Part shown: in pieces, positions 1 to 56,044 of the stretch
Numbering within the stretch: the first letter of the stretch is position 1
Layout of the letters: every line of letters begins with the position of its first letter
DNA from: an uncultured Gammaproteobacteria bacterium
GTDB taxonomy: Bacteria > Patescibacteriota > Patescibacteriia > Magasanikbacterales > GWA2-37-8
Length of the DNA stretch: 64,000 nucleotides
Direction: 5' to 3'
NCBI GenBank assembly: GCA_964533715.1
Contig: CAZHNI010000002.1
Coordinates: forward strand, 46,496-110,495
Translations under genes and position numbers: made by a program
The notes under the pieces: model-generated
Told to the model about the DNA's origin: nothing
Seen by the model: the letters and a program-made list of their open reading frames with translations, nothing else
Database searches by the model: none

Positions 1-163
1 ACAGGAAGGTCGCGATGACCAGAGAAAAATACTTTAAATCCTTAAAAAGTAAAATTGCTTTAAAAAATTTTATAAAAAATAATGCTAAAGTTGGTTAGAG
101 TCCCGACCTGTCGGGATTTACACCGAGGGGGTCGAGGGTTCGAATCCCTTGGCGTGCACGCCA
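1..163 (+). ncRNA. tRNA-like 3' domain ending in CCA (T-arm GGTTCGAATCC). Possibly the 3' portion of tmRNA (ssrA) or an atypical tRNA; the 5' partner strand is not found in the window.
   Basis: The canonical T-loop GGTTCGAATCC lies at 137-147 within a 5-7 bp T-stem (gaggg/ccctt), followed by a 7-nt strand and discriminator, and then CCA at 161-163. A D-loop-like AGTTGGTTAGAG is at 89-100. No standard 7-nt anticodon loop and no 5' acceptor strand could be folded. An intrinsic terminator follows immediately. Confidence 0.35.
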
Positions 164-167
164 TTTG

Positions 168-192: not shown

Positions 193-275
193 GTTGGGTA
201 AGTACATTACATTGACTGAAAAAATCAAGTCTGTTAGGATGGGCCTACACCAGCCATCCCGGCTAGGAGGTGCAC

Positions 276-1121
276 ATGTCGGCAAGAAGCTTCGTGCGAA
301 TGCTGAAAGCGCAGTGGGTGCTGCGGAAGTTCGTCTGCGTCGGGCTCGATCCCGATCCGAGCAAGATCCCCGGCTACACCGAGCAGGCGGGGACCATGGC
401 GGTCCGCGGGTTCCTCGAGGAGATCATCCTGAGCACCCACGACCTCGTGGGCGCCTACAAGCCGAACCTGGCGTTCTTCGAGCAGTTCGGCCCCGAGGGT
501 CTCCAGCTTCTGGTCGAGATCTGTCAGCACATCCGGTCGGTGTGCCCGCAGGTTCCCATCATCCTCGACGCCAAGCGCGGTGACATCGGGAACACCAACG
601 AGGGGTATGCCCGCTTCCTGTTCGATCGGTGCTGCGGCGACGCGGTCACCGTCCACCCGTACCTGGGGCAGGAGGCGCTCGCGCCGTTCCTCGCCCGCAA
701 GGACAAGGGCGTCTTTGTCCTCTGCCGGACCTCGAACCCAGGCGCGGGCGAGTTCCAGGATTTTCTCGGTCCGGACGGCACGCCGCTGTACCTGCGCGTC
801 GCCAGGAACGTGGCCACGAGCTGGAACGCGAACAACAACTGCGGCCTGGTCACCGGCGCCACCTATCCCATCGAGATCGCGGCGGTGCGCGAGGTAGCGC
901 CGAACCTGCCGCTCCTCATCCCGGGCGTCGGCAAGCAGGGCGGCGATCTGGAGTCGGCCGTGAAGGCGGCCCTGGCCGCCGACGGCGAGGGCAACTTCCT
1001 GGTCAACGCCTCGCGCGACATTCTGTACGCCTCGAAGGGCGACGACTACGCCCGGGCGGCACGGGCTGCCACGCTGCGGCTCCACGGCGAGATCATCCGG
1101 CACCTCGGGCTCACGGACTGA
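276..1121 (+). CDS. pyrF: Orotidine 5'-phosphate decarboxylase, type 2 (long, actinobacterial-like form)
   Basis: Motifs GLDPDP, KPNLAFFE, ILDAKRGDIGNT, VTVHPYLG, VFVLCRTSNP and LIPGVGKQGG line up with type-2 OMP decarboxylases. AGGAGG sits 5 nt upstream of the ATG at 276 (the listed ORF starts at an in-frame GTG at 270). The gene is markedly GC-rich compared with its flanks. Confidence 0.85.
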   Translation: MSARSFVRMLKAQWVLRKFVCVGLDPDPSKIPGYTEQAGTMAVRGFLEEIILSTHDLVGAYKPNLAFFEQFGPEGLQLLVEICQHIRSVCPQVPIILDAKRGDIGNTNEGYARFLFDRCCGDAVTVHPYLGQEALAPFLARKDKGVFVLCRTSNPGAGEFQDFLGPDGTPLYLRVARNVATSWNANNNCGLVTGATYPIEIAAVREVAPNLPLLIPGVGKQGGDLESAVKAALAADGEGNFLVNASRDILYASKGDDYARAARAATLRLHGEIIRHLGLTD

Positions 1122-4450: not shown

Positions 4451-5059
4451 TTACTTGGGTGAGTGGACGGAGTGGTAGAGGGGGTGGCCGTAGACCGGAT
4501 AGCTGCCGGTCCCTTCGGCGGAGCAGGACGCGTAGCCGCCCCACTCGATGTAGAGGGCCGCGCCTGGGGGTGCCTCGTTCCAGTTCGTGCACACCACCTG
4601 GAAAGGAATCAGCTTGTCCTTTTCCAGGTGAAGCGGCGTGCTGCCTGGCATCCAGTAGCCAGAGTTGGGGCCGATTTGCTCGCCGATGGTGTCCCCCCCG
4701 CCGTAGCCAATTTCTCCGGTGGGGACTCCGTTCAGCCAGACCTCGATCCGGGGCACCCAGTTGCTGCGTTCATAGCCGAGCCACAGGGACACACCCTCAA
4801 GGTTGATCGGCTGGCAGTCGGCGCTGTCAGCGGCGTGCATGGCGCCGTTGATCAGCACCGCGACCGACTGAGACGCCGGCACCTCATCCGGCGGAGGGGT
4901 GGCCGGCTCAAAGACCGGGAAGCCCGGCACGATCATGTACTTGGCCGTCAGGGTGTACCCCGGGCGGGTTTCGGACAGCACCGGACCGCACTGTGGCTCC
5001 GGCCGATCGGCACCGCAACTAGCCGCGAGCAGCAGAGACAAAACAACCAGTTGGCGCAT
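4451..5059 (-). CDS. High-GC lipoprotein of unknown function
   Basis: Lipobox LLLAASCGA. RBS GAAAGGAAG 6 nt upstream of the ATG. GC-rich codon usage unlike the flanks. The antisense ORFs 4459-4806 and 4463-5110 are judged spurious. Confidence 0.7.
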   Translation of the reverse strand: MRQLVVLSLLLAASCGADRPEPQCGPVLSETRPGYTLTAKYMIVPGFPVFEPATPPPDEVPASQSVAVLINGAMHAADSADCQPINLEGVSLWLGYERSNWVPRIEVWLNGVPTGEIGYGGGDTIGEQIGPNSGYWMPGSTPLHLEKDKLIPFQVVCTNWNEAPPGAALYIEWGGYASCSAEGTGSYPVYGHPLYHSVHSPK

Positions 5060-5206: not shown

Positions 5207-5375
5207 CCTTAAGCTTTGAATTACGAAACACCCATTTTGTCATCCTGAACCCCGCTCAAGCGGGGTGAAGGATCTCTGTCCGGTTGTTAACTTGGCCAAC
5301 GTTGGCCAATTAAGACAGAGATTCTTCGCTCTGCTCAGAATGACAGTTGAGTTTCGTAACTCAAAGCCCTTAAGG
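5207..5375. repeat. ~170-bp imperfect palindromic (MITE-like) element, copy A
   Basis: Outer inverted repeat CCTTAAGCTTTGAATTACGAAAC / GTTTCGTAACTCAAAGCCCTTAAGG. Inner termini TTGTCATCCTGA / TCAGAATGACAGTT. Internal hairpin CCCCGCTCAAGCGGGG. Central perfect palindrome TTGGCCAACGTTGGCCAA. Homologous to the element at 22173-22330. Confidence 0.55.
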
Positions 5376-8005: not shown

Positions 8006-9745
8006 TTATGGGGCGCTAACGGCGGCACCAAATTTGGCTCCACGATCGTCCGATGCTAGCTGATTAGAAAGGGCAGGGAGTTTAGTGTCAAAAATTTTGC
8101 CTACTACAGTGTCTTCTGCATGTACGGTTATTTCTTTTGTTATGGATAGAATGTTGCCAATTTGCTGTGGGGAAGGCGAGACGGAAACCTCAAAATATAA
8201 CCCGGTTTGGCTTTGGGCGGGCAGTTCTCTAAAATTCCAGTGTACCGTTCTAGTGTCTGCGGAATAGGTGAGCTCGGGGCCGATAGTAACGCTTTGTTTG
8301 CCGGTAAAGGCAACCCCGGGAGCAAGCGGGATGTTTACTGAAACATTGTCTACGGCGTTAACGGTGTTATTTAATGTAAGGAAAATCCAGTATTTAGTAG
8401 TTTCGCCAACGCGTGGTGGCAATGGGCCACGACCAAGCTGGTCGCCTTCAGCGGTGTAATAACGAATTTCATTTTTTCCGGAAAAATCTGTAGCCATTTG
8501 TATACTGAGAGGAGCGCTAGACTGCTTAAGCAATTGTCCAGAAACAAGTTCCGTTGATGCCTCCCAGGTAGGAGAGACGGTAAGTTGGTTGTTCGTCGGG
8601 TCGGAAGAGGCAAAGTTTTTTGCCAGTTGCAGGTTAATTATAAAATCATCTGTGGCGCCAGGTTTTGGTGCAGTTAAGGCGGTGCGTGCAAGATTATTAA
8701 TAATTAAATCTTCATGATCAACGGTGAGACGGTTATTTTTGGCTGTGGCAATTAGGTTTACCGCATGCGTGTTAAAGTGGAGACGGATTTGAGCGTTTGA
8801 AAATGCGAATGAGCTGTTATTGCGCCAGGTTATGTGGAGAGGTAATTCATCGCCGCTGTTTATAAAGGGTGGAGAGGTAGGAAAATCGGTGGTCAAATTT
8901 ACTTCTGGCTTAATAAGGGATATGCTTTGAGTATTTCTACCGAGTGGAATTGGTTGTTTGCCAACGGTGATAGTTGGAACCACTTGCGCGTTAAAGGTGG
9001 TCGCTGAAGTTGGAATAGTAAGTGTGCCGGTAAATGTTTTTGTTTCGCCTCCTTTAAGGAAAATATTTTCAAATTTTTCTTTTTCAAGGGTGCTTTGTTT
9101 CCAGTTAGTAACAATCGAAATATTTGGTACGTCGGTTGATCTTGAGTTAAAAATACTAATAGTATACGGGAGTGGTTGGTTGGGGAAAGAGGACGAAGCG
9201 GAGGAAAAAGAGGAAACCACTATACTCGCAGGTAATTCAACGAGCGTGGAGCTTAATTTTTGCTCGGTGCTAGTGTGCCCATCGGCACGATATGAAAGCG
9301 TGCCTATAATTTTTATTTCGGAGTTAGGAGTTGTCCATAGTATACCGGGGAGAACAACGCTACCCTTAGCCCCGGGTTTAATGTCGGGAAGAGTAAATCC
9401 GTTTTCTGCTGAAAAAGTTGAAGATGAAATTGTACTATAGTCAATTATAAAACCCGGAGGGAGCCGCAGTGTGATAGCGGCTTGATGAAGGGTAAATTTA
9501 TTTCGGTTGGTATATGTTGCGGACAGTTCAACTCGTTCGCCACTTTTTATGCGCGAGGTGCCGAGAGAGATTGAAAAATCAACGAGGCCGGTTGTGCCCG
9601 GTTTCCAAAAGAAGAAAAAAATGCTGGCGCCGAAAAAGGCGATGGCCAATCCAAGAAGCACGAGATCGAACACAAACAATTGCTGGGCATGTTGATAAAT
9701 ACCATGATATCGTTTGTGGTATAATTTGTGAAAAAAAGAGGTCAC
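8006..9745 (-). CDS. N-terminally membrane-anchored extracytoplasmic protein of unknown function (579 aa, Thr/Ser/Asn-rich beta-type domains)
   Basis: Single N-terminal TM helix (LVLLGLAIAFFGASIFFFFW) followed by a large hydrophilic, low-complexity beta-rich region. Confidence 0.6.
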   Translation of the reverse strand: MTSFFHKLYHKRYHGIYQHAQQLFVFDLVLLGLAIAFFGASIFFFFWKPGTTGLVDFSISLGTSRIKSGERVELSATYTNRNKFTLHQAAITLRLPPGFIIDYSTISSSTFSAENGFTLPDIKPGAKGSVVLPGILWTTPNSEIKIIGTLSYRADGHTSTEQKLSSTLVELPASIVVSSFSSASSSFPNQPLPYTISIFNSRSTDVPNISIVTNWKQSTLEKEKFENIFLKGGETKTFTGTLTIPTSATTFNAQVVPTITVGKQPIPLGRNTQSISLIKPEVNLTTDFPTSPPFINSGDELPLHITWRNNSSFAFSNAQIRLHFNTHAVNLIATAKNNRLTVDHEDLIINNLARTALTAPKPGATDDFIINLQLAKNFASSDPTNNQLTVSPTWEASTELVSGQLLKQSSAPLSIQMATDFSGKNEIRYYTAEGDQLGRGPLPPRVGETTKYWIFLTLNNTVNAVDNVSVNIPLAPGVAFTGKQSVTIGPELTYSADTRTVHWNFRELPAQSQTGLYFEVSVSPSPQQIGNILSITKEITVHAEDTVVGKIFDTKLPALSNQLASDDRGAKFGAAVSAP

Positions 9746-10254: not shown

Positions 10255-10405
10255 ATTTGTATACTATAGTATATACAAAATTTGAATTTTTGTCAAGTAA
10301 TGATGATTTTATGTTAGGATAGATTCTGTTTGTTTTGTATTAATATTTATTTTGTGTACACTATATTATACAATTATTGTATACACTATTGTATACAAAT
10401 TGTAA
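10253..10405. promoter_or_regulatory. Array of TTGTATAC(A) boxes, a candidate operator for the adjacent HTH protein
   Basis: TTGTATA-ctatagta-TATACAA (7-bp inverted repeat) at 10253-10274. GTGTACACTATA and ATTGTATACAC-T-ATTGTATACAA-ATTGTA direct repeats at 10353-10403. Confidence 0.4.
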
Positions 10406-12543: not shown

Positions 12544-12779
12544 TTTTAATAATTTTAATTTTTATCTCTCTCGAATAATTTTGGCAGACCGCGAAGGTTG
12601 TTTGAGAGAGGTAAGTTTATCGAATATGAACAGTGCTCCAAGGTCGAGGGTCCGTAAAGGATTCGCCTGTTCGGTTGTATCTTGCGGGGGTTTTAAATTC
12701 TCGTAAGAACGGCCCTAGAGTGATTGACTCAGAAATTTTTTCTGGGCGCAGCCATCTGGGGTTCATATTAATTTATTGT

Positions 12780-16505: not shown

Positions 16506-16557
16506 GCCAATGTAGTGGTTTAGCAGTAACGTTCGTTTATCGGTACACAACCGATAC

Positions 16558-16590
16558 AACCCCCGCCGCAATGGCGGGGGTTGTTTTATT
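16558..16590 (+). terminator. Intrinsic terminator (CCCCCGCC-gcaat-GGCGGGGG followed by TTGTTTT)
   Basis: Perfect 8-bp GC stem plus a T-run immediately after the giant surface-protein gene. Confidence 0.7.
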
Positions 16591-16619
16591 ATTAAAATTA
16601 TAGTAAAATAAAATAAAAA

Positions 16620-18896: not shown

Positions 18897-19580
18897 ATGT
18901 ATAAAAAAATTATTATTGGTGTTGTCGCACTCGTCGTAATTGGTGGGGTGGCAGGACTCTGGTATACGGGGTTTTTGGGAGGGGAGAGGGCCGTGCGCCG
19001 TTCCATAAGTTCTAACCCCGAATGGCTTGCTAACTACGAAAAGGCCAAACAACGCGAGGCCGAAATACAAAAAAACCCAGAAAAAGCCGGCTTGTATTTT
19101 TCGCTCGGCTTGGCTTGGAAGAGTATTGGCGAACTGGGCGGACCAAAAGAATTTTTTAATCGTTCGCTTGCGGTATATGAACAAGGCATTGCTAAATTTG
19201 GCGCACAAAATATTTTGTTTTATCTTAATGCTGGCAAATTGGCCGAACGAGTGGATGACTTAGCCAAAGCGGAAAATTATTATAAAAAAGCTATAGAAAT
19301 TTCTCCCGCCGATGACAGTGGCTACAAATATTTAGCGGAGCTTTATGAGTATCGTTTAAAAAAATCTAAAGCCGAGGTATTGGCTGTTTTCCATATGGGT
19401 GATATTAAAATGGTTAACCCTTCCTCGCTTTTGATGGCCGAAGCATCCTATTTGCATCGGGTTGGTGATGTGCTTGGTGCATTAAAAATTTATCGTGTTT
19501 TGGTTGAGGCGTACCCTAGTAACCAAGGCTACAAACGAGTTGTTCAAGAGTTAGAAACCGAAGCTGCTGCTCAAAAATAG
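18897..19580 (+). CDS. N-terminally anchored TPR-repeat protein
   Basis: TM helix IIIGVVALVVIGGVAGLWY followed by TPR-like helical repeats. Confidence 0.6.
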   Translation: MYKKIIIGVVALVVIGGVAGLWYTGFLGGERAVRRSISSNPEWLANYEKAKQREAEIQKNPEKAGLYFSLGLAWKSIGELGGPKEFFNRSLAVYEQGIAKFGAQNILFYLNAGKLAERVDDLAKAENYYKKAIEISPADDSGYKYLAELYEYRLKKSKAEVLAVFHMGDIKMVNPSSLLMAEASYLHRVGDVLGALKIYRVLVEAYPSNQGYKRVVQELETEAAAQK

Positions 19581-19597
19581 CCTGTAGATTTACATAA

Positions 19598-19622
19598 CCT
19601 CGGTATCAGCCGGGGTTTTTTG
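19598..19622 (+). terminator. Intrinsic terminator (CCTCGG-tatcag-CCGGGG followed by TTTTTTG)
   Basis: 6-bp stem with one G-U pair plus a T-run after the TPR gene. Confidence 0.5.
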
Positions 19623-19663
19623 TTACAATTTTTGTTTATTTACTAATAAAAGTGGATTTTCTA

Positions 19664-19692
19664 TTGACAAAAGGCTCATTTTATGGTATAAA
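19664..19692 (+). promoter_or_regulatory. Consensus sigma70 promoter: TTGACA - 17 nt - TATAAA
   Basis: Perfect -35 hexamer, 17-nt spacer and a near-consensus -10, about 270 nt upstream of the high-GC gene at 19961. Confidence 0.5.
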
Positions 19693-19785
19693 GGGATGTT
19701 CAAATTGCGTCTTTTTGGGCATAATTTGAATGTTAAAACTGTTCTTTTACAATCTATTTGAAGCAATACAAAATGTAATAACGTT

Positions 19786-19903
19786 CCTTGGCACGAAGAG
19801 AGGATAGAAACTAGAAATTGGAAATTGGAAATTGGGGATTTTTAAATCGTCCCGAGTTTCTTATTTCTAGTTTTTAATTTCCAATTTTTCTCCGTGCCAA
19901 GGG
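19786..19903. repeat. Complex repeat/hairpin region: inverted repeat CCTTGGCACG...CGTGCCAAGG enclosing three tandem GAAATTG units plus interleaved complementary blocks
   Basis: AAACTAGAAAT pairs with ATTTCTAGTTT, and AATTGGAAATT pairs with AATTTCCAATT. The block order is not compatible with a single simple hairpin. Followed by the hairpins GGGAC-taaggtt-GTCCC and TCCGGC-tctaa-GCCGGA, the latter abutting the RBS GGAGGAGG. Confidence 0.5.
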
Positions 19904-19960
19904 ACTAAGGTTGTCCCAAGGCTTGTCCCCATTTCCGGCTCTAAGCCGGAGGAGGTTCCC

Positions 19961-20746
19961 ATGTACCAGCAGATCATCCGCATCGCCGCCCTCGTCTTCG
20001 CGCTTTTCGTCCTCAACTCCGCCCCGGCCTCGGCCAAGAAGCCGGCCCCGGTCGCCGAGATCGAGAGTCCCGACCTCTCCCTCGCGAAGGTCCGTTTCAA
20101 GACCGGCGAAAAGAAGTACGAGGCCGAGGACTACGCCGGCGCCCTCAAGGAGTTCGAGGGCGCGAAGTTCCTGCAGCCCAAGCGCATCGAGCTCGATTAC
20201 AACATCGCGCGCTGCCACGATCGGCTGGGCAACTGGGAGCAGGCGGTGAAGTTCTACACCGCCTACGCCGACACGAAGCCGAAGGACGAGAAGGAGGTGA
20301 GGGAGCGTATCGCGATCCTCAAGGAGAGGCTCGCGGCGAAGCCCCTCACCACCCCCGCCGTTGCCGGCACCCAGCCCGCTCCGCCCGCCCTGGCTCCCGC
20401 CCCCGCGACGCGGACTGACGGTGGCGTCACGCCCGCGGCTCCCGCCACCCCCTACGCCGGCAGCAAGCCGAACCTCAACCTGCCGGCCCCCGCCCCGGCC
20501 CCGCCCGCCGCGACTGTCCCGCTCGTTCCGACGACCCAGCCCGTGGCCCCCACGTCGACCAGCCCGCCCTTCTACAAGAAGTGGTGGTTCTGGACGGCCG
20601 TGGGCGCCGCCGCGCTCGTCGCGGTCGGCGTCGGCATCGGCGTCGGAGCTTCGCGGGAAACCACCTATTCCCAGACCCGCCCGGACCTGGGGACCGTTCA
20701 CTTCAACCTCAACCTCTTTCCCACCCCCGACACGGGGGGGAGGTGA
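19961..20746 (+). CDS. High-GC secreted TPR-like / proline-rich protein with a C-terminal TM helix
   Basis: RBS GGAGGAGG. Signal peptide IAALVFALFVLNSAPASA. Long Pro/Ala-rich linker. TM helix WWFWTAVGAAALVAVGVGIGVG. GC-rich. Confidence 0.65.
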   Translation: MYQQIIRIAALVFALFVLNSAPASAKKPAPVAEIESPDLSLAKVRFKTGEKKYEAEDYAGALKEFEGAKFLQPKRIELDYNIARCHDRLGNWEQAVKFYTAYADTKPKDEKEVRERIAILKERLAAKPLTTPAVAGTQPAPPALAPAPATRTDGGVTPAAPATPYAGSKPNLNLPAPAPAPPAATVPLVPTTQPVAPTSTSPPFYKKWWFWTAVGAAALVAVGVGIGVGASRETTYSQTRPDLGTVHFNLNLFPTPDTGGR

Positions 20747-20749
20747 CCC

Positions 20750-22006
20750 ATGCGCCAGACCCTCTTCGCCTTGATGGTCGCCGCCCTCCTCGCGGGGTGC
20801 GGCGCCGACATGCGCCCGTGCCCCAAGGGCGCGGTCCGTATCCACATGCAGTTCGACCAGGTCGTCCGTGATCGTGGGTACGCCGTCACGGCGACCCTCA
20901 CGATCGATGGGGTGTCGGTCCAGACCCCCTTCGACCCCAGCATCAACGGGGATGCGGAAGGGAATATGGACTTCGTCTTCACCCATGGCTACCCGGCGAT
21001 CGGTGCAGAGGCGCAGATCGACCTGGTCGTGCGTCGCAACAGCGACATCGTCGGCGAGGGGCACGCAACCTTCGAGATCACCGAAGGGTGCACCTACGTC
21101 GTCGTCCCGGTGACCGCTTCGGTGGCACCTGAGGACGGCGGCACTGATCTCGCGCGGCTCGACGGCGGCGCTGACCTGTCTCGGCCGGACCTCGCCAGTG
21201 GCGACGGTTCGGTCGACCAGGCCACCCCGCCTGACCTCACGACGCCCCCCGACCTGACGCGCCCCCCCGGCGACCTCACCGTTCCGCCCCCTGACCTCAC
21301 CGTCGCGGGGGACATGGCGCGGCTCCCGGACGCGGCCCTCCCCGACCTGACCACCGCCCCGCCTGACCTCACGACGCCCCCCGACCTGACGCGCCCCCCG
21401 GACCTCGTGGCCACGCCCGATCTGGTTCTCGCCTGCAATCTCGACGCCGACTGTGGCAGCAAGACCGGTGGTGCCTGCAAGAACGGCACCTGCCAGCCCC
21501 CTGCATGCACCGACGGCCTCAAGAACCAGGACGAGACTGACGTCGACTGCGGCGGCGCCAAGTGCGTGCCGTGCGTGCCCACCAAGGCGTGTATCAAGGA
21601 CGCCGATTGCATCATTCCGTGGTGCAACCCCAGCACCAAGAGGTGCGGCAACATGGTCGGTACGGTCTTCATCGGATCGGAGGGCGAGAAAATTGACCTG
21701 AACAACCCGGCGAACAACCCGCCGCCCGTGTGGAGCTGCCTCGACGCCTGCGCCAAGAAGTTCGGTGCCGGTACCTACCGCTGCTCCACCGTGCTCGGCT
21801 CCGTCAACGGGCTGAGCTGGTCGCAGTGCTACGGCGACGGGCAGCACTGCTCCCCTGGTGGAGAGGTGTCCGAGAGCTACAAACTCGGCACCACCTACTA
21901 CTGCCCAGGGGCGCCGGGCTGCGCCTGCTCGGCGTGGGTCGACTACCAGAACAGCGGTGGTTCGGCCTGCGCCAACGCGGGCGCCAAGTCCTACTGCTTC
22001 AAGTAG
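20750..22006 (+). CDS. High-GC lipoprotein with PPDLT(T/R)P repeats and a Cys-rich C-terminal domain
   Basis: Lipobox LLAGCGA. RBS GGGAGG overlaps the upstream stop. Repeated TPPDLTTPPDLTRPP. About 30 Cys in the C-terminal 190 aa (CxxGxCxxxxC patterns). The antisense ORF 19874-22150 is rejected. Confidence 0.7.
   Translation: MRQTLFALMVAALLAGCGADMRPCPKGAVRIHMQFDQVVRDRGYAVTATLTIDGVSVQTPFDPSINGDAEGNMDFVFTHGYPAIGAEAQIDLVVRRNSDIVGEGHATFEITEGCTYVVVPVTASVAPEDGGTDLARLDGGADLSRPDLASGDGSVDQATPPDLTTPPDLTRPPGDLTVPPPDLTVAGDMARLPDAALPDLTTAPPDLTTPPDLTRPPDLVATPDLVLACNLDADCGSKTGGACKNGTCQPPACTDGLKNQDETDVDCGGAKCVPCVPTKACIKDADCIIPWCNPSTKRCGNMVGTVFIGSEGEKIDLNNPANNPPPVWSCLDACAKKFGAGTYRCSTVLGSVNGLSWSQCYGDGQHCSPGGEVSESYKLGTTYYCPGAPGCACSAWVDYQNSGGSACANAGAKSYCFK
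21226..21398 (+). repeat. Two copies of a ~43-bp direct repeat (CCCCGCCTGACCTCACGACGCCCCCCGACCTGACGCGCCCCCC) encoding the PPDLTTPPDLTRPP motif
   Basis: Identical DNA blocks at 21226-21268 and 21356-21398. Confidence 0.6.
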
Positions 22007-22011
22007 ACCCC

Positions 22012-22057
22012 CGCCAGAGGGCGGAGCCCACTTCGGTGGTGCTCCGCCCTCGGCGGA
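22012..22057 (+). other. GC-rich hairpin (GCCAGAGGGCGGAGC...GCTCCGCCCTCGGCGG) at the 3' end of the high-GC islet
   Basis: Near-perfect 16-bp inverted repeat with no T-run after it. Confidence 0.4.
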
Positions 22058-22140
22058 TCTAACCTCGCGGTTGCCTACGGCGACCGCTTCTCTCTTGTAC
22101 TCAAGATTAGTTAAATCGTGGTTACAAGTATAGAAAAAAT

Positions 22141-22172
22141 AAAATCCCAAGGCACATGTCCGGGATTTTTTT
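22141..22172 (+). terminator. Terminator-like hairpin AAATCCC...GGGATTT followed by TTTTTTT
   Basis: 7-bp stem with an imperfect GGCACATGTCC interior, plus a T-run. Confidence 0.45.
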
Positions 22173-22330
22173 ATTAAGTTTGGTTAATAACTGTCATTCC
22201 GACTGAGGAGCTCGCGCGACGAGTGGAGGAATCCCTTGGTTCGTTAAATGGCGATTTTGGTAAAAGGGATTTCTCGACTAGGCCTCCGGCCTCGCTCGAA
22301 ATGACAGTTTTTCATTGAGCTATTTTTGTT
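22173..22330. repeat. ~150-bp imperfect palindromic (MITE-like) element, copy B, homologous to 5207-5375
   Basis: Termini AACTGTCATTCCGACTGAGG / CTCGCTCGAAATGACAGTT, inner GGAATCCCTT / AAGGGATTTC, internal hairpin CTCGcgcgaCGAG. Shares TGTCATYC, GTGRAGGA-TC and GAAATGACAGTT with copy A. The left flank ATTAAGTTTGG resembles copy A's CTTAAGCTTTG. Confidence 0.55.
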
Positions 22331-22383
22331 TGACAGTAATTGTTTAGGCCAGGTATACTATACTGGTATTATTACACTTTTTT

Positions 22384-24441
22384 ATGAAAAATATCATTGA
22401 ACGGATTGTTAAATTCTGTATCTACGCCACATTTTTTGTGCCGCTGGTGGTGGTACCGTCGTCGTTTATTTTTCCGTTTATTGTCCCCAAAATTTTGTTA
22501 TTTCGCGCCCTGGTTACTATAATGCTTGCTGGTTACATTTTGCTTTTAGCTGTAGATTTTGAATCGTATCGGCCAATTCGTTCTATTTTGTCGTTATCTG
22601 TTTTGTTGTTCTTGTTAAGTTTTGGTTTGTCAACTTTTTTAGGCGTGGATGCCTACCATAGTTTTTGGGACAACCACGAACGCATGTTGGGCCTGTTTAC
22701 TATTACTCACTATATTATTTATTTTTTTATTTGTGGCGCCGTGCTGCGAAGCTGGTCGGATTGGAAGTGGGCGTTGCGCCTATTTTTATTGGCTGGTTCC
22801 ATAGTAATGTTTATTGCAGTTTTGCAAAAAGGCAATCCAGAATTACTCTTAAACCAGGGTAGCGACCGCACCGCAAGCACGCTTGGCAATGCAATTTATG
22901 TGGGCGGTTATGGTTTGTTTTTGTTTTTTGTTTCCTTGCTTCTTTTTACCAAGGATAAAATAACAAGTTGGCGGTTTGCCTATGGTTTAGCGGGTATTTT
23001 GGCCATACTTGGTATATTTTTTAGTGGCACGCGCGGATCAGTTATTGGTTTATTGGCAGGCTTGTTTGTAACTATTGTGGGTTATTTAATTATTATAAAA
23101 AATCACGCTCGCGTGCGGTATAGTTTACTTGGCATTTTAGGACTTGTAGTCTTTGGTGTCCTCGTATTGTATGCCAATCGTAATTCAGCGTGGGTGGAAT
23201 CATTGCCGGCCATCGGTCGTTTGTCCGCCACTTCGTTTTCTGATATTAAAAACGGCACTCGTTTTATTGCTTGGCAAATTGCTTGGCAAAGCGCGGCCGA
23301 AAAGCCTTTTTTTGGCTGGGGGCCCAACAACTTTTTTTACGCGTTTAACAAATATTACAATCCACGCTCGCTGGAATTTGGTTATGGCGAAACCTGGTTT
23401 GATAATGCCCACAATATTATTCTTAACACGCTTACCGTACAAGGGTGGTTCGGTCTTATAGTATATCTTTCTGTTTTTGGCGTGGCCGGAGTTGTTTTGT
23501 GGAGAAACAAAAATTTTCGTGAAAGCCAGCCGCACGTAGTGGTTATTGGATCTGCTTTTTTGTTTGCACATTTAGTGCAGAATATTACGGTTTTTGAAAA
23601 CCCCACTTCATATTTGTACTTTATGTTTTGGCTGGCGCTCGTGGCGCAGAGCACAACCGCGGTTGTTAAAAGTGATGAGAATAATATTCAAAAAATAAAA
23701 ACAGCCGCAGCGTCGCAGCCGGTTGGGATCGGCGCGGTTGTGCTCACTGGGCTGGCAGCGTTGGCGGTAATTTTTGTTTTTGAAATTCAACCAGCTCGCG
23801 CTAATATTAAAACACTCGACGCACTTAACGCTTTTGCGACAGACCCGACAACCGGGTTCGCTGTTATGCAGGAAACTCTAAAATTTAACTCTCCCCATAT
23901 TGATGATATTAGAAGCGACCTTGCCCGCATGGTGGTTGACTTGGTTGGGAGATATTATCAAAAATTAGGCAAAGAGCAGTCAGTGCAATTTATTGATTTT
24001 ACTCGAACTTCACTTGAAGAGAATGTTAAACTTCACCCTTTGGATATTCGTAACAACATGACGTTAACGCAGCTTAACCAGCTTAGTTACGCCATTACGA
24101 ATGATCCGCGTTTTATAGTGTCCGCACACGAATACCTTGTAGACGCATTAAGTAAGAGCCCGCGGCGCCAACAACTTATGTATATGTTGGCAAGCATTAA
24201 ATTGCAGCTCGGTCGCAAAGATGAAGCAATACGCCTAATGGAACAATCAATTGAAGAAGACCAGAAAATTTCTGAAGGTTACTGGCGTTTAGCTTTTATC
24301 TACCAGTTTATTGGCGACACAATTCGTGCCAGAGCCACTCTTGGTTTGGCTCATGAGCGGGGAGTAGTATTTGACGCTCAGGGTCAAGATGTTGAAACCC
24401 AGATTATGGCTGGACTTGGAAAGAACGGTACAAAGAAGTAG
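22384..24441 (+). CDS. O-antigen-ligase-domain membrane protein with C-terminal TPR repeats (paralog of 16620-18890)
   Basis: Motifs GTRGSVIGLLAGLFV, FFGWGPNNFFYAFNKYYNP and WFDNAHNIILNTLTVQGWFGL. TPR-like C-terminus. Confidence 0.75.
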   Translation: MKNIIERIVKFCIYATFFVPLVVVPSSFIFPFIVPKILLFRALVTIMLAGYILLLAVDFESYRPIRSILSLSVLLFLLSFGLSTFLGVDAYHSFWDNHERMLGLFTITHYIIYFFICGAVLRSWSDWKWALRLFLLAGSIVMFIAVLQKGNPELLLNQGSDRTASTLGNAIYVGGYGLFLFFVSLLLFTKDKITSWRFAYGLAGILAILGIFFSGTRGSVIGLLAGLFVTIVGYLIIIKNHARVRYSLLGILGLVVFGVLVLYANRNSAWVESLPAIGRLSATSFSDIKNGTRFIAWQIAWQSAAEKPFFGWGPNNFFYAFNKYYNPRSLEFGYGETWFDNAHNIILNTLTVQGWFGLIVYLSVFGVAGVVLWRNKNFRESQPHVVVIGSAFLFAHLVQNITVFENPTSYLYFMFWLALVAQSTTAVVKSDENNIQKIKTAAASQPVGIGAVVLTGLAALAVIFVFEIQPARANIKTLDALNAFATDPTTGFAVMQETLKFNSPHIDDIRSDLARMVVDLVGRYYQKLGKEQSVQFIDFTRTSLEENVKLHPLDIRNNMTLTQLNQLSYAITNDPRFIVSAHEYLVDALSKSPRRQQLMYMLASIKLQLGRKDEAIRLMEQSIEEDQKISEGYWRLAFIYQFIGDTIRARATLGLAHERGVVFDAQGQDVETQIMAGLGKNGTKK

Positions 24442-55057: not shown

Positions 55058-55894
55058 CTAGAAGATCTGGAGGTCGAGGAGGGCGCGGAGCGCCAGGGCG
55101 CGGCACATGTTGCCGCCCTTGGTCTGCATCCGCACCACCCGGTTCAGCGTCTGGAAGGCGCCGGCCGGGTTGTCGAGTCGGAGCTGGGCCTTGGCCGCGA
55201 AGAGGAGCGCGGTCCCGATGGCGTCCCCGTACTCGCCGGTGAGCGCGGTCGCCTCGGCGATCTCGATGGCGCTGGTGAAGTCGCCGGCGTCGTAGAGCCT
55301 GGCCACCTGGGCCATCATCCAGAACGGGCGGAACAGGTCGTGGTAGCGGTTGTCGGCCGCCTCCATCGCCTGCATCGCCGCCAGGTACGACGAGCGGCCC
55401 TGGTACTGGTTGATGTTGGCGAGCATGCTCGCCTCGACGACGTGGGCCGGGATGTTCCCCTCGACCCACTCGAGCGCACGAGGGGACTCGTCGCCCGCGA
55501 GCGCCTGCTGCGCCACTGCGGCGGCGGCGGCGAGCCGGTTGAAGGTGTGGCCCAGCTCGTCGCCCCTGACCACGGCGTTGTTGAACGCCGAGACCGTGGC
55601 GAGGAACGCCTCGATCGCGTAGCTGGTGTCGGTCTCGCGCGTTGCCGGGGGCGAGCGGTACTGCTCGGCGGCCAGCAGGTGCAGGTTGATCAGCGCACCG
55701 TAGCCGCCGCCGTCGCGCGTCATGATGCGGGCGTTGTAGCCGGCGCGGAGCGCGAGCGCCGTGCGCTCGACCCCGTCCGGCAGCTCCGCGATCTCCGCCA
55801 TGACCTCACGCAGGAGGACGGCGGCTTCCCCGAATCCCTCGTTGGTCTGGCGCAGCGCGTACACCCGGTCGATTTTTTTTCCGATTTCTTCCAT
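55058..55894 (-). CDS. High-GC all-helical hypothetical protein (278 aa)
   Basis: RBS AAGGAGGG 8 nt upstream of the ATG at 55894 (MEEIGKKIDRVY). GC-rich throughout. The plus-strand antisense ORFs 55340-55939 and 55000-55242 are judged spurious. Confidence 0.6.
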   Translation of the reverse strand: MEEIGKKIDRVYALRQTNEGFGEAAVLLREVMAEIAELPDGVERTALALRAGYNARIMTRDGGGYGALINLHLLAAEQYRSPPATRETDTSYAIEAFLATVSAFNNAVVRGDELGHTFNRLAAAAAVAQQALAGDESPRALEWVEGNIPAHVVEASMLANINQYQGRSSYLAAMQAMEAADNRYHDLFRPFWMMAQVARLYDAGDFTSAIEIAEATALTGEYGDAIGTALLFAAKAQLRLDNPAGAFQTLNRVVRMQTKGGNMCRALALRALLDLQIF

Positions 55895-56044
55895 GTGCTT
55901 GCCCTCCTTGTGGGCGTTTTGGGTCAAAATTTTGCTTAGCAAAAATTAAAGCACCCCTCATTTTATCATATAATAAGGTTTTTGTCAATTCGCGATCATC
56001 GATTCGTTTAAAATTTTTAACCCGCTAGTTTTTCTTGATAAATT

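Follow-up and report, generated by a model that had tools for sequence, protein, structure and literature searches.

A candidate promoter and 5' leader RNA with a conserved hairpin base ahead of foreign high-GC genes in Magasanikbacteria

Leaders of the ompA type provide bacterial mRNAs with 5'-terminal stabiliser hairpins. JUMPStart/ops elements acting with RfaH, and the EAR and LoaP leaders, are conserved and head horizontally exchanged surface-polysaccharide clusters. In the integron platform, a Pc promoter together with attI captures promoterless cassettes. Members of the CPR/Patescibacteria are believed to live on other bacteria, and their genomes are tiny; to our knowledge, almost no cis-regulatory RNA elements have been described in them, and little has been learned of how they gain and express foreign genes. 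Correia elements, such as that of the mtrCDE leader, are long inverted repeats transcribed as part of a leader and cleaved by RNase III at the base duplex, with a change in mRNA level (review PMC10969869). Horizontal transfer into Patescibacteria has already been documented in general (PMC12455944). What is new here relative to known transfer is a conserved leader paired with variable, unameliorated cargo.

The locus reported here lies in a 64-kb stretch of DNA, referred to as the window. Its predicted transcript would begin with a 5'-terminal hairpin (hairpin 1), pass through an AU-rich spacer, a long hairpin and a small one, and enter two foreign high-GC genes with no terminator on the way. 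Like the Correia elements of Neisseria and the ERIC elements of enterobacteria, the long hairpin is an imperfect palindrome of 100-150 nt between a sigma-70 promoter and a gene that would form one long RNA hairpin. Those elements are multi-copy, generate target-site duplications and often bring their own promoter, whereas the long hairpin is single-copy in the sequence covered, has no duplication and is conserved, in its base only, at the orthologous position in a distant genome (GCA_023246725.1, referred to as L084). Hairpin 1 recalls the ompA-type stabilisers in its position at the predicted +1 and in being the best-conserved part of the leader (76%). As with JUMPStart, EAR and LoaP leaders, a conserved non-coding leader precedes variable cargo of atypical composition in a cell-surface cluster; unlike them, the locus has no ops element, Rfam match or identified NusG paralogue, and its cargo consists of two secreted proteins, not sugar enzymes. 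As in an integron, foreign genes without promoters of their own stand behind a resident promoter, and the same platform carries differing cargo between genomes, but there is no adjacent integrase, no GTTRRRY/RYYYAAC core site and no attC hairpin at the cargo 3' end.

The leader occupies a 380-nt gap between a host-like gene (18897-19580, 43% GC) and an islet of 69% GC (Table 1), within a cell-surface polysaccharide cluster containing O-antigen ligase and GT4 genes. The flanking host proteins come from a single NCBI contig of 110,616 bp, each an exact singleton; their nearest relatives are ~50% identical and labelled Candidatus Magasanikbacteria. Orthologues of the flanking genes are only 3-78 bp apart in five relatives (L049, L050, L085, L119 and L118), and this spacing shows that all of 19581-22383 (2.8 kb), AT-rich promoter and hairpins included, is a lineage-specific insertion into an operon. 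An earlier note on this DNA had suggested that the region might be the left-end sequence of an inserted segment; these five empty-site relatives, and a homologous leader at the same site in L084, support that suggestion. The insertion as a whole has no terminal inverted repeats. BLAST searches of phages and plasmids with the leader and the insertion as queries gave no matches, and a metagenome scan with the 227-aa flanking protein returned TPR relatives only (26-36% identity).

Table 1. Features of the insertion and its leader, in positions of the window.
Feature	Positions	Strand	Description
Intrinsic terminator of the upstream host operon	19596-19623	+	9-pair stem and T-run, from the terminator scan; first element of the conserved module
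Promoter P1	19664-19692	+	-35 TTGACA 19664-19669; 17-nt spacer; extended -10 TGgTATAAA (TG 19684-19685, TATAAA 19687-19692)
Hairpin 1	19699-19730	+	9+4 pairs, or 13+4 with transcript start at 19695; begins at the predicted transcription start
AU-rich single-stranded spacer	19731-19782	+	two weaker promoter-like sites, 19726-19753 and 19746-19774
Long hairpin	19783-19905	+	50 pairs; conserved base 19783-19803 / 19885-19905 with mismatch A19796.C19892; variable interior 19804-19884
Heptad arrays in the long hairpin	19807-19889	+	5' arm GAAACTA then GAAATTG x3; 3' arm degenerate, complementary, period 7/14; loop 19840-19848; lineage-specific
Small hairpin and tandem duplication	19901-19929	+	GGGAC-TAAGGTT-GTCCC (19901-19917); duplication AAGGTTGTCCC/AAGGCTTGTCCCC; leader homology with L084 stops here
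GC-rich hairpin at the Shine-Dalgarno	19932-19963	+	9 pairs (19932-19952), overlaps Shine-Dalgarno GGAGGAGG (19948-19955); ATG 19961; part of the high-GC cargo
Cargo gene 1	19961-20746	+	261-aa secreted TPR protein with C-terminal YKKWWFWTAVG membrane motif; GC 0.70, GC3 0.92
Cargo gene 2	20750-22006	+	418-aa lipoprotein with PDL-type repeats and Cys-rich C-terminal domain; GC3 0.88
Cargo 3' end	22010-22172	+	GC-rich hairpins (stem 22067-22087), then AT-rich hairpin AAAATCCC...GGGATTTT and T-run
Palindromic repeat GTCATTCYGA...TCRGAATGAC	22192-22308		widespread type; between cargo and next host gene
Promoter P2	22330-22359	+	TTGACA-18-TATACT; re-starts the downstream host gene at 22384

The textbook TTGACA-17-TATAAA promoter described in the earlier note is present, and carries an additional TG ahead of the -10 hexamer. 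It is the sole match to TTGACA-N16-18-TATAAW in the window, compared with 0.14 expected. Nine sites in the window, P1 among them, match the sigma-70 consensus at 11 of 12 positions (2.5 +/- 1.5 in local shuffles), and six of the nine are intergenic and correctly oriented. P1 is thus of sigma-70 type by its 11/12 match and its TG at -15/-14. The promoter is also conserved: the aligned L084 site reads TTGACA (8803), 17 nt, TGgTATGAT, and the promoter segments of the two genomes are 69% identical. No terminator-like site was found by the terminator scan within 19624-19960, including the interval from P1 to the ATG at 19961. In the proposed scheme, the upstream host operon would be closed by its terminator and P1 would then start a transcript at about 19699. 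The claim that a promoter and a structured leader feed the first high-GC gene is supported.

Downstream of the long hairpin, both of the small GC hairpins that had been reported are present. The second has a predicted energy of -12.8 kcal/mol and takes in the first five bases of the Shine-Dalgarno sequence, seven of whose eight bases have a predicted unpaired probability of at most 0.14. A counterpart of this hairpin is absent from the L084 leader. The aligned L084 sequence lacks an ATG for both of the small leader ORFs (at 19696 and 19730), and upstream ORFs are not conserved.

In the gapless register 19783-19839 x 19849-19905, the arms of the long hairpin oppose each other in 41 Watson-Crick, 10 G.U, 3 A.C and 3 other combinations, and the longest uninterrupted runs of pairs are 14 and 13. 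The 123 bases are predicted to fold at -61.4 kcal/mol (z = -9.8 against shuffles). After correction for GC content, this fold ranks top among 8,516 windows of 130 nt on both strands, with a residual of -34.7 kcal/mol (z = -5.9). RNA from the minus strand would reach -43.4 kcal/mol; the + strand folds 18 kcal/mol better because G.U combinations outnumber A.C by 10 to 3, an excess that is marginal (one-sided p = 0.046) and could alternatively stem from C-to-T bias on a strand whose GC skew is positive. The 10-nt outer inverted repeat CCTTGGCACG/CGTGCCAAGG (19786-19795 and 19893-19902) is real and occurs nowhere else in the window. The three tandem GAAATTG units were likewise recovered (TRF, 3.1 copies at 19814-19835), and the motif is confined to this site in the window rather than being a common low-complexity motif of it.

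The earlier note had further held that the order of the complementary blocks cannot form one simple hairpin, and had offered a pseudoknot or alternative folds instead. The gapless 50-pair hairpin contradicts this. When the perfect but out-of-register block pairing was forced, the fold reached only -42.9 kcal/mol, 18.5 kcal/mol worse than the single hairpin. The blocks appear interleaved because both arms are heptad arrays, in which a shift of register by two heptads also brings perfect matches. Pseudoknots and alternative folds are unneeded because the single hairpin is better by this amount, and on the folding model the RNA is a single long hairpin, not a pseudoknot.

Comparison with L084 separates a conserved part of the leader from a variable one. 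The same site is occupied in that genome, whose host proteins are 54-66% identical to those of the window. From L084 position 8755 onward, the T-run and the sequence downstream of it align to the window. The L084 module has the order terminator, TTGACA-17-TGgTATGAT, a hairpin GTTCAAATT...ATTTGAAT, a spacer of ~53 nt, a 199-nt hairpin, GTCCC-TAATGTT-GGGAC (the counterpart of the small hairpin, followed by TAA) and a high-GC operon. The leaders are 64% identical over 188 nt, and the coding DNA of the two genomes 62-70%, suggesting a constraint on promoter and leader as strong as that on coding DNA. Identity is highest in hairpin 1 (L084 8838-8871), where the five stem substitutions are one-sided transitions that switch between Watson-Crick and wobble pairing or repair a mismatch, with pairing kept in all, and is low in the AU-rich spacer (47%). 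The base of the long hairpin, homologous to L084 8925-8942 / 9108-9125, is 67% identical. The two bases have CCTGGCACG/CGTGCCAGG and the A.C mismatch in common, and the outer stem in L084 is ACCTGGCACG.ACGATG / CATCGT.CGTGCCAGGT. Of the 17 basal pairs compared, seven are unchanged, as is the A.C mismatch; five show double changes that still pair, three show one-sided changes from G.U to Watson-Crick, and none is broken; this covariation is one pairwise comparison between the two known members, window and L084. P1, hairpin 1 and the basal 17-18 pairs are shown by these alignments to be conserved in a second genome with pairing-preserving substitutions. The hairpin interior is unrelated: the window has heptad arrays, and L084 has unique sequence with a nested palindromic element of GTCATTCCGA type at the apex.

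The genes behind the leader differ sharply in composition from the host genes. GC3 is 0.37-0.38 in host genes compared with ~0.9 in the cargo, and ~0.87 in the L084 operon. Contigs of 63-66% GC contain this gene pair, equally tightly arranged, and the named partial matches of cargo gene 2 are to Nannocystis and Labilithrix only. Both operons are of foreign origin, with Myxococcota-like affinities, and have not been ameliorated. The first proteins of the two operons are 32% identical to each other, each is 39-46% identical to proteins from high-GC contigs, and they do not group in a distance tree built from 94 columns without support values. With GC3 near 0.9 in both cargoes, amelioration reasoning makes a single ancient acquisition followed by vertical descent unlikely. 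The occurrence of leader and unameliorated genes together in two independent assemblies largely rules out an assembly chimera. An artefact of assembly or of MDA fold-back was also rejected, given that the palindrome is imperfect and conserved in the second assembly.

The reading that we favour, at about even confidence and by analogy with described leaders, is a new conserved promoter and 5' leader RNA that acts on mRNA stability or processing. On the folding model, the module would function as RNA from the + strand. Hairpin 1 may stabilise the 5' end of that RNA. In the long hairpin, the basal duplex may be a processing or stability site for an RNase III-type, double-strand-specific enzyme, which would set the expression level of the acquired operon. 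The 50 predicted pairs of the long hairpin compare with the near-continuous double-stranded RNA of at least ~20 bp expected of an RNase III substrate, and pairing in the basal stem has been maintained in evolution between the two sequences compared. The apex appears free to vary, having undergone heptad expansion in the window and gained a nested repeat in L084. Since "compensatory" changes arise automatically in palindromes aligned by position, DNA-level processes, namely arm-to-arm conversion or nested palindromic insertions, could mimic selection at the RNA level. If the module is a general one for expression or capture, it would give an epibiont a concrete mechanism for the rapid domestication of host-derived surface proteins.

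The regulatory identities first proposed for the region are hardly credible, whether a pseudoknotted riboregulator or riboswitch, an attenuator, or a protein-binding DNA array of GAAATTG units. Perfectly complementary blocks do exist in a non-nested order, and the Shine-Dalgarno is predicted to be largely paired. The nested hairpin is nevertheless much the better fold, and an H-type pseudoknot or alternative-fold riboregulator was rejected both for the energetic cost of its out-of-register helix (18.5 kcal/mol in the forced fold) and for the lack of conservation of its blocks. As for an attenuator or intrinsic terminator, no stem in the leader is followed by a U-tract, the sequence after the long stem being UAAGGUUG, and there is no conserved leader peptide. 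Rfam 15 covariance models gave no match at gathering score across the whole window, which speaks against a riboswitch or known riboregulator; the best sub-threshold match (27 bits, threshold 211) was to a plant miRNA precursor, a generic match to a long hairpin. The L084 leader gave no Rfam match at E <= 0.01, and an ARAGORN search for tRNA and tmRNA genes was negative. Both the heptads and the Shine-Dalgarno hairpin are missing from the homologous L084 leader, where the whole hairpin interior is unrelated, and the GAAATTG units are therefore not a conserved protein-binding array.

An unlikely but serious rival, less likely than the leader RNA, is that the AT-rich module is a resident capture-and-expression site, a landing pad belonging to one Magasanikbacteria lineage, just downstream of whose ready promoter foreign operons have been inserted repeatedly. 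High-GC Myxococcota-like operons would be captured next to the long palindrome, and the resident promoter and leader would express them without delay; the palindrome, or the adjacent GGGAC/GTCCC hairpin, would be a recombination hot spot through a cruciform or hairpin break or as a recombinase site. Site and leader are indeed common to two genomes with non-sister cargoes, and cargo GC3 is ~0.9 in both although the host proteins are only 54-66% identical, which argues against one old vertical acquisition; rapid divergence following just one acquisition is a less likely alternative in view of GC3, and the cargo tree has 94 columns and no support values. A 9-nt direct repeat, TCCCAAGGC, starts where leader homology stops (19913-19917) and recurs at 22145. 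This repeat is only suggestive, being reached in 10 of 300 shuffles, and its right-hand copy lies 55 nt outside the GC-rich core. Palindromic repeats have accumulated in and around both modules, and three other high-GC islets in the window each lie behind an AT-rich promoter, that of islet 4 being, self-matches aside, the top match of the leader model (25 bits). Against such capture stand the lack of an integrase or transposase among the neighbouring ORFs examined and the lack of terminal inverted repeats on the insertion; the L084 contig, moreover, ends before the right end of its islet. If true, this would be an integron-like capture platform without a recognisable integrase, and it would explain both the common leader with non-sister, unameliorated cargo and the position of all four islets behind AT-rich promoters. 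The high-GC Myxococcota-like donor is possibly the physical host of these ultra-small bacteria. It is distinctly unlikely that the palindrome is a selfish or neutral element, either a repeat of MITE/ERIC type or a heptad microsatellite duplicated in inverse orientation, lying functionless in the 5' UTR by chance. Its 123 bp (range for such elements 50-500 bp) and 13-bp terminal inverted repeat, which makes a 13-pair terminal stem, are typical of them, heptad arrays occupy both arms, the interior is not conserved, and a genuine widespread palindromic repeat is found in the same insertion. A scan of viral contigs for GAAATTG x3 returned unrelated heptad arrays, with the hairpin form in two unrelated phage contigs (L031 and L030). 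Multiple copies, however, are lacking: the long hairpin occurs once in the 64-kb window, and searching 139 kb from related genomes with the leader model gave no copy. The outer-stem pattern CCTTGGCACG-N80-110-CGTGCCAAGG had 23 matches in 185,579 species genomes, all of them high-GC chance matches, and the 32 matches to the leader pattern GTTCAAATT-N70-95-TGGCACGAA in viral contigs were likewise due to chance. The flanks (...ATAAC / element / TAAGG...) contain no direct repeat that would represent a target-site duplication, and the base has been conserved, with pairing kept, at the same position of a homologous leader between genomes as divergent as these.

Two further rivals were considered. 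The hairpins could form a processive antitermination or anti-Rho leader that loads or modifies RNA polymerase for a C-rich foreign mRNA, which we consider improbable. The cargo mRNA is rich in C, its GC skew falling as low as -0.37, and such mRNA should favour Rho loading; the locus belongs to a cell-surface polysaccharide cluster with O-antigen ligase and GT4 genes, and a conserved leader precedes variable cargo. The ops motif GGCGGTAG is nevertheless absent, there is no Rfam match to EAR or another leader, and no NusG paralogue has been identified. In addition, separate terminators serve the cargo, and a separate promoter serves the next host gene. Quite improbable is a hijacked small-RNA gene, in which P1, hairpin 1 and the long hairpin were once an independent ncRNA and the foreign operons were inserted before its terminator. 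Such an origin would fit the terminator and promoter with which the module itself begins, the terminator-like hairpin and U-run after the cargo (22137-22172), and the possible 9-nt junction repeat. A cargo-free copy of the module was found in none of the five empty-site relatives, however, and the terminator appears, from the sequences, to pair better where it now stands than it would have done in the sequence reconstructed for the time before insertion.

Other candidate identities were rejected individually. A retron msr-msd would call for a reverse transcriptase, and there is none; for IS200/IS605 ends, there is no TnpA and the hairpin is too long. The stem contains TGGCACG without TTGC at the right spacing for a sigma-54 promoter. 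The hairpin ends GTTCCTT... / ...AAGGGAC and the GTTGTCC that follows fit neither the RYYYAAC nor the GTTRRRY core of integron attC/attI sites, and the neighbouring ORFs scanned (TPR, Wzy_C and GT4) contain no recombinase domain. For a JUMPStart/ops leader, the ops element was sought on both strands of 19581-19960 and was absent.

The deposited annotation bears on how such loci are found. Both real islet proteins are absent from the protein collection, which contains a 758-aa antisense ORF over them. This ORF comes from the same contig as the flanking host proteins, and the islet therefore belongs to the deposited sequence. The deposited gene calls appear to have replaced both real genes with the spurious antisense ORF, and islets of this kind are probably missed systematically in CPR annotations.

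Four islets of 65–70% GC, set against a genome of ~40% GC, were found in the window, and their GC3 values, where measured, ranged from 0.82 to 0.95. Each islet starts with its own ribosome-binding site, which immediately follows AT-rich promoter-like sequence. In a folding scan of the whole window, the seven segments that were most structured after GC correction included five at islet borders. Coordinates of the islets and of the other elements are collected in the table.

Positions of islets, repeats and structured elements in the window and in related contigs
Feature	Source	Positions	Strand	Product or content
Islet 1	window	270-1121	+	OMP decarboxylase (pyrF-like)
Islet	window	4451-5059	-	202-aa lipoprotein
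Islet	window	19961-22006	+	TPR/lipoprotein pair
Islet 4	window	55058-55894	-	278-aa protein, weak TPR match
Islet 4 leader	window	55902-55992	-	promoter, small hairpin
Cargo-like gene pair	L121	4001-6759		TPR-YKKWWFW gene, large lipoprotein gene
Cargo-like gene pair	L032	3731-6501		TPR-YKKWWFW gene, large lipoprotein gene
Direct repeat	window	19914-19922; 22145-22153		TCCCAAGGC
Antisense ORF	window	19874-22150	-	758 aa
Palindromic repeat	window	22192-22308; 5236-5346
Palindromic repeat	L084	8634-8733; ~8967-9083
Phage hairpin	L031	40-150	-	GAAATTGG arrays and complement
tRNA/tmRNA-like stretch	window	~95-167	+	ends in GGTTCGAATCCCTTGGCGTGCACGCCA
5' UTR hairpin	window	12562-12614	+	23 pairs
Terminator region	window	16506-16610		hairpin-rich
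Terminator region	L084	5122-5239		hairpin-rich
TTTGTATACACTAGTGTATACAAA palindromes	window	10255-10400
TTTGTATACACTAGTGTATACAAA palindromes	L049	1546-1737
TTTGTATACACTAGTGTATACAAA palindromes	L050	1475-1657

The TPR/lipoprotein islet is represented in the protein collection by an antisense ORF spanning it, taken from the 110,616-bp source contig, and the two real genes on the + strand are absent from that collection. The same kind of mis-annotation probably affects high-GC islets in low-GC CPR genomes generally. A candidate donor arrangement for this cargo was seen in L121 and L032, two contigs of 63–66% GC with Myxococcota-like neighbouring genes (PilZ, PEGA, an FHA-sigma54 activator and a Ser/Thr kinase). 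In both, the large lipoprotein gene directly follows the TPR-YKKWWFW gene, with a 2-nt gap in L121 and an overlap in L032; the lipoprotein repeats are PDL-type and proline-rich in the former and NHL-type in the latter. Because the two genes are adjacent in both contigs, the pair in the window looks like a native donor operon. The cargo is flanked by a 9-nt direct repeat, TCCCAAGGC, whose left copy begins where homology with the leader of L084 (the distant relative GCA_023246725.1) ends. A direct repeat of 9 nt was reached in 10 of 300 shuffles, and TCCCAAGGC could be microhomology at the junction or could have arisen by chance.

The islet 4 leader was the top non-self match of the leader covariance model (25 bits, E ~0.014, 139 kb searched). 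Only its promoter (TTGACAAAAaCCTTATTaTATGaTAAAAT) resembles the model; beyond the promoter, near the transcript start, this leader has a small hairpin of its own. The long leader hairpin also has a likeness among phage structural genes, on the IMG/VR contig 3300028837_001956 (L031). There, just 3' of a gene stop, a hairpin composed of GAAATTGG arrays and their complement, with two AACGTTCC motifs, is 72–74% identical to the window hairpin across 77–87 nt; this is probably low-complexity convergence.

A palindromic repeat of 85–115 bp (GTCATTCYGAGCGAAGCGARGAATCYC...GRGATTCYTCGC...TCRGAATGAC) is widespread. Each of the two copies in the window separates an islet from the host gene that comes next, and in L084 the long leader hairpin has one copy nested in its apex. 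A pattern scan of viral contigs returned 37 matches in 33 contigs, with the same internal modules in most.

Just 5' of islet 1 and ahead of a terminator lies a stretch reminiscent of a tRNA or tmRNA 3' end (T-arm and acceptor). Neither ARAGORN nor Rfam recognized it, possibly because the window start truncates the element. Within the 5' UTR of the gene for a 1290-aa surface protein lies a G.U-rich hairpin, the 3' arm of which, GAGAGAGG, may be a sequestered Shine-Dalgarno sequence. The terminator region 3' of the same gene is, besides the leader, the only intergenic stretch that can be aligned at the DNA level between the window and L084. Three copies of the 24-nt palindrome TTTGTATACACTAGTGTATACAAA lie 5' of a sigma-70/DUF5667 gene pair, adjoining a divergent HTH_17 gene. 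These palindromes are kept across relatives, including L049 and L050, which have an empty insertion site, and look like an operator array.
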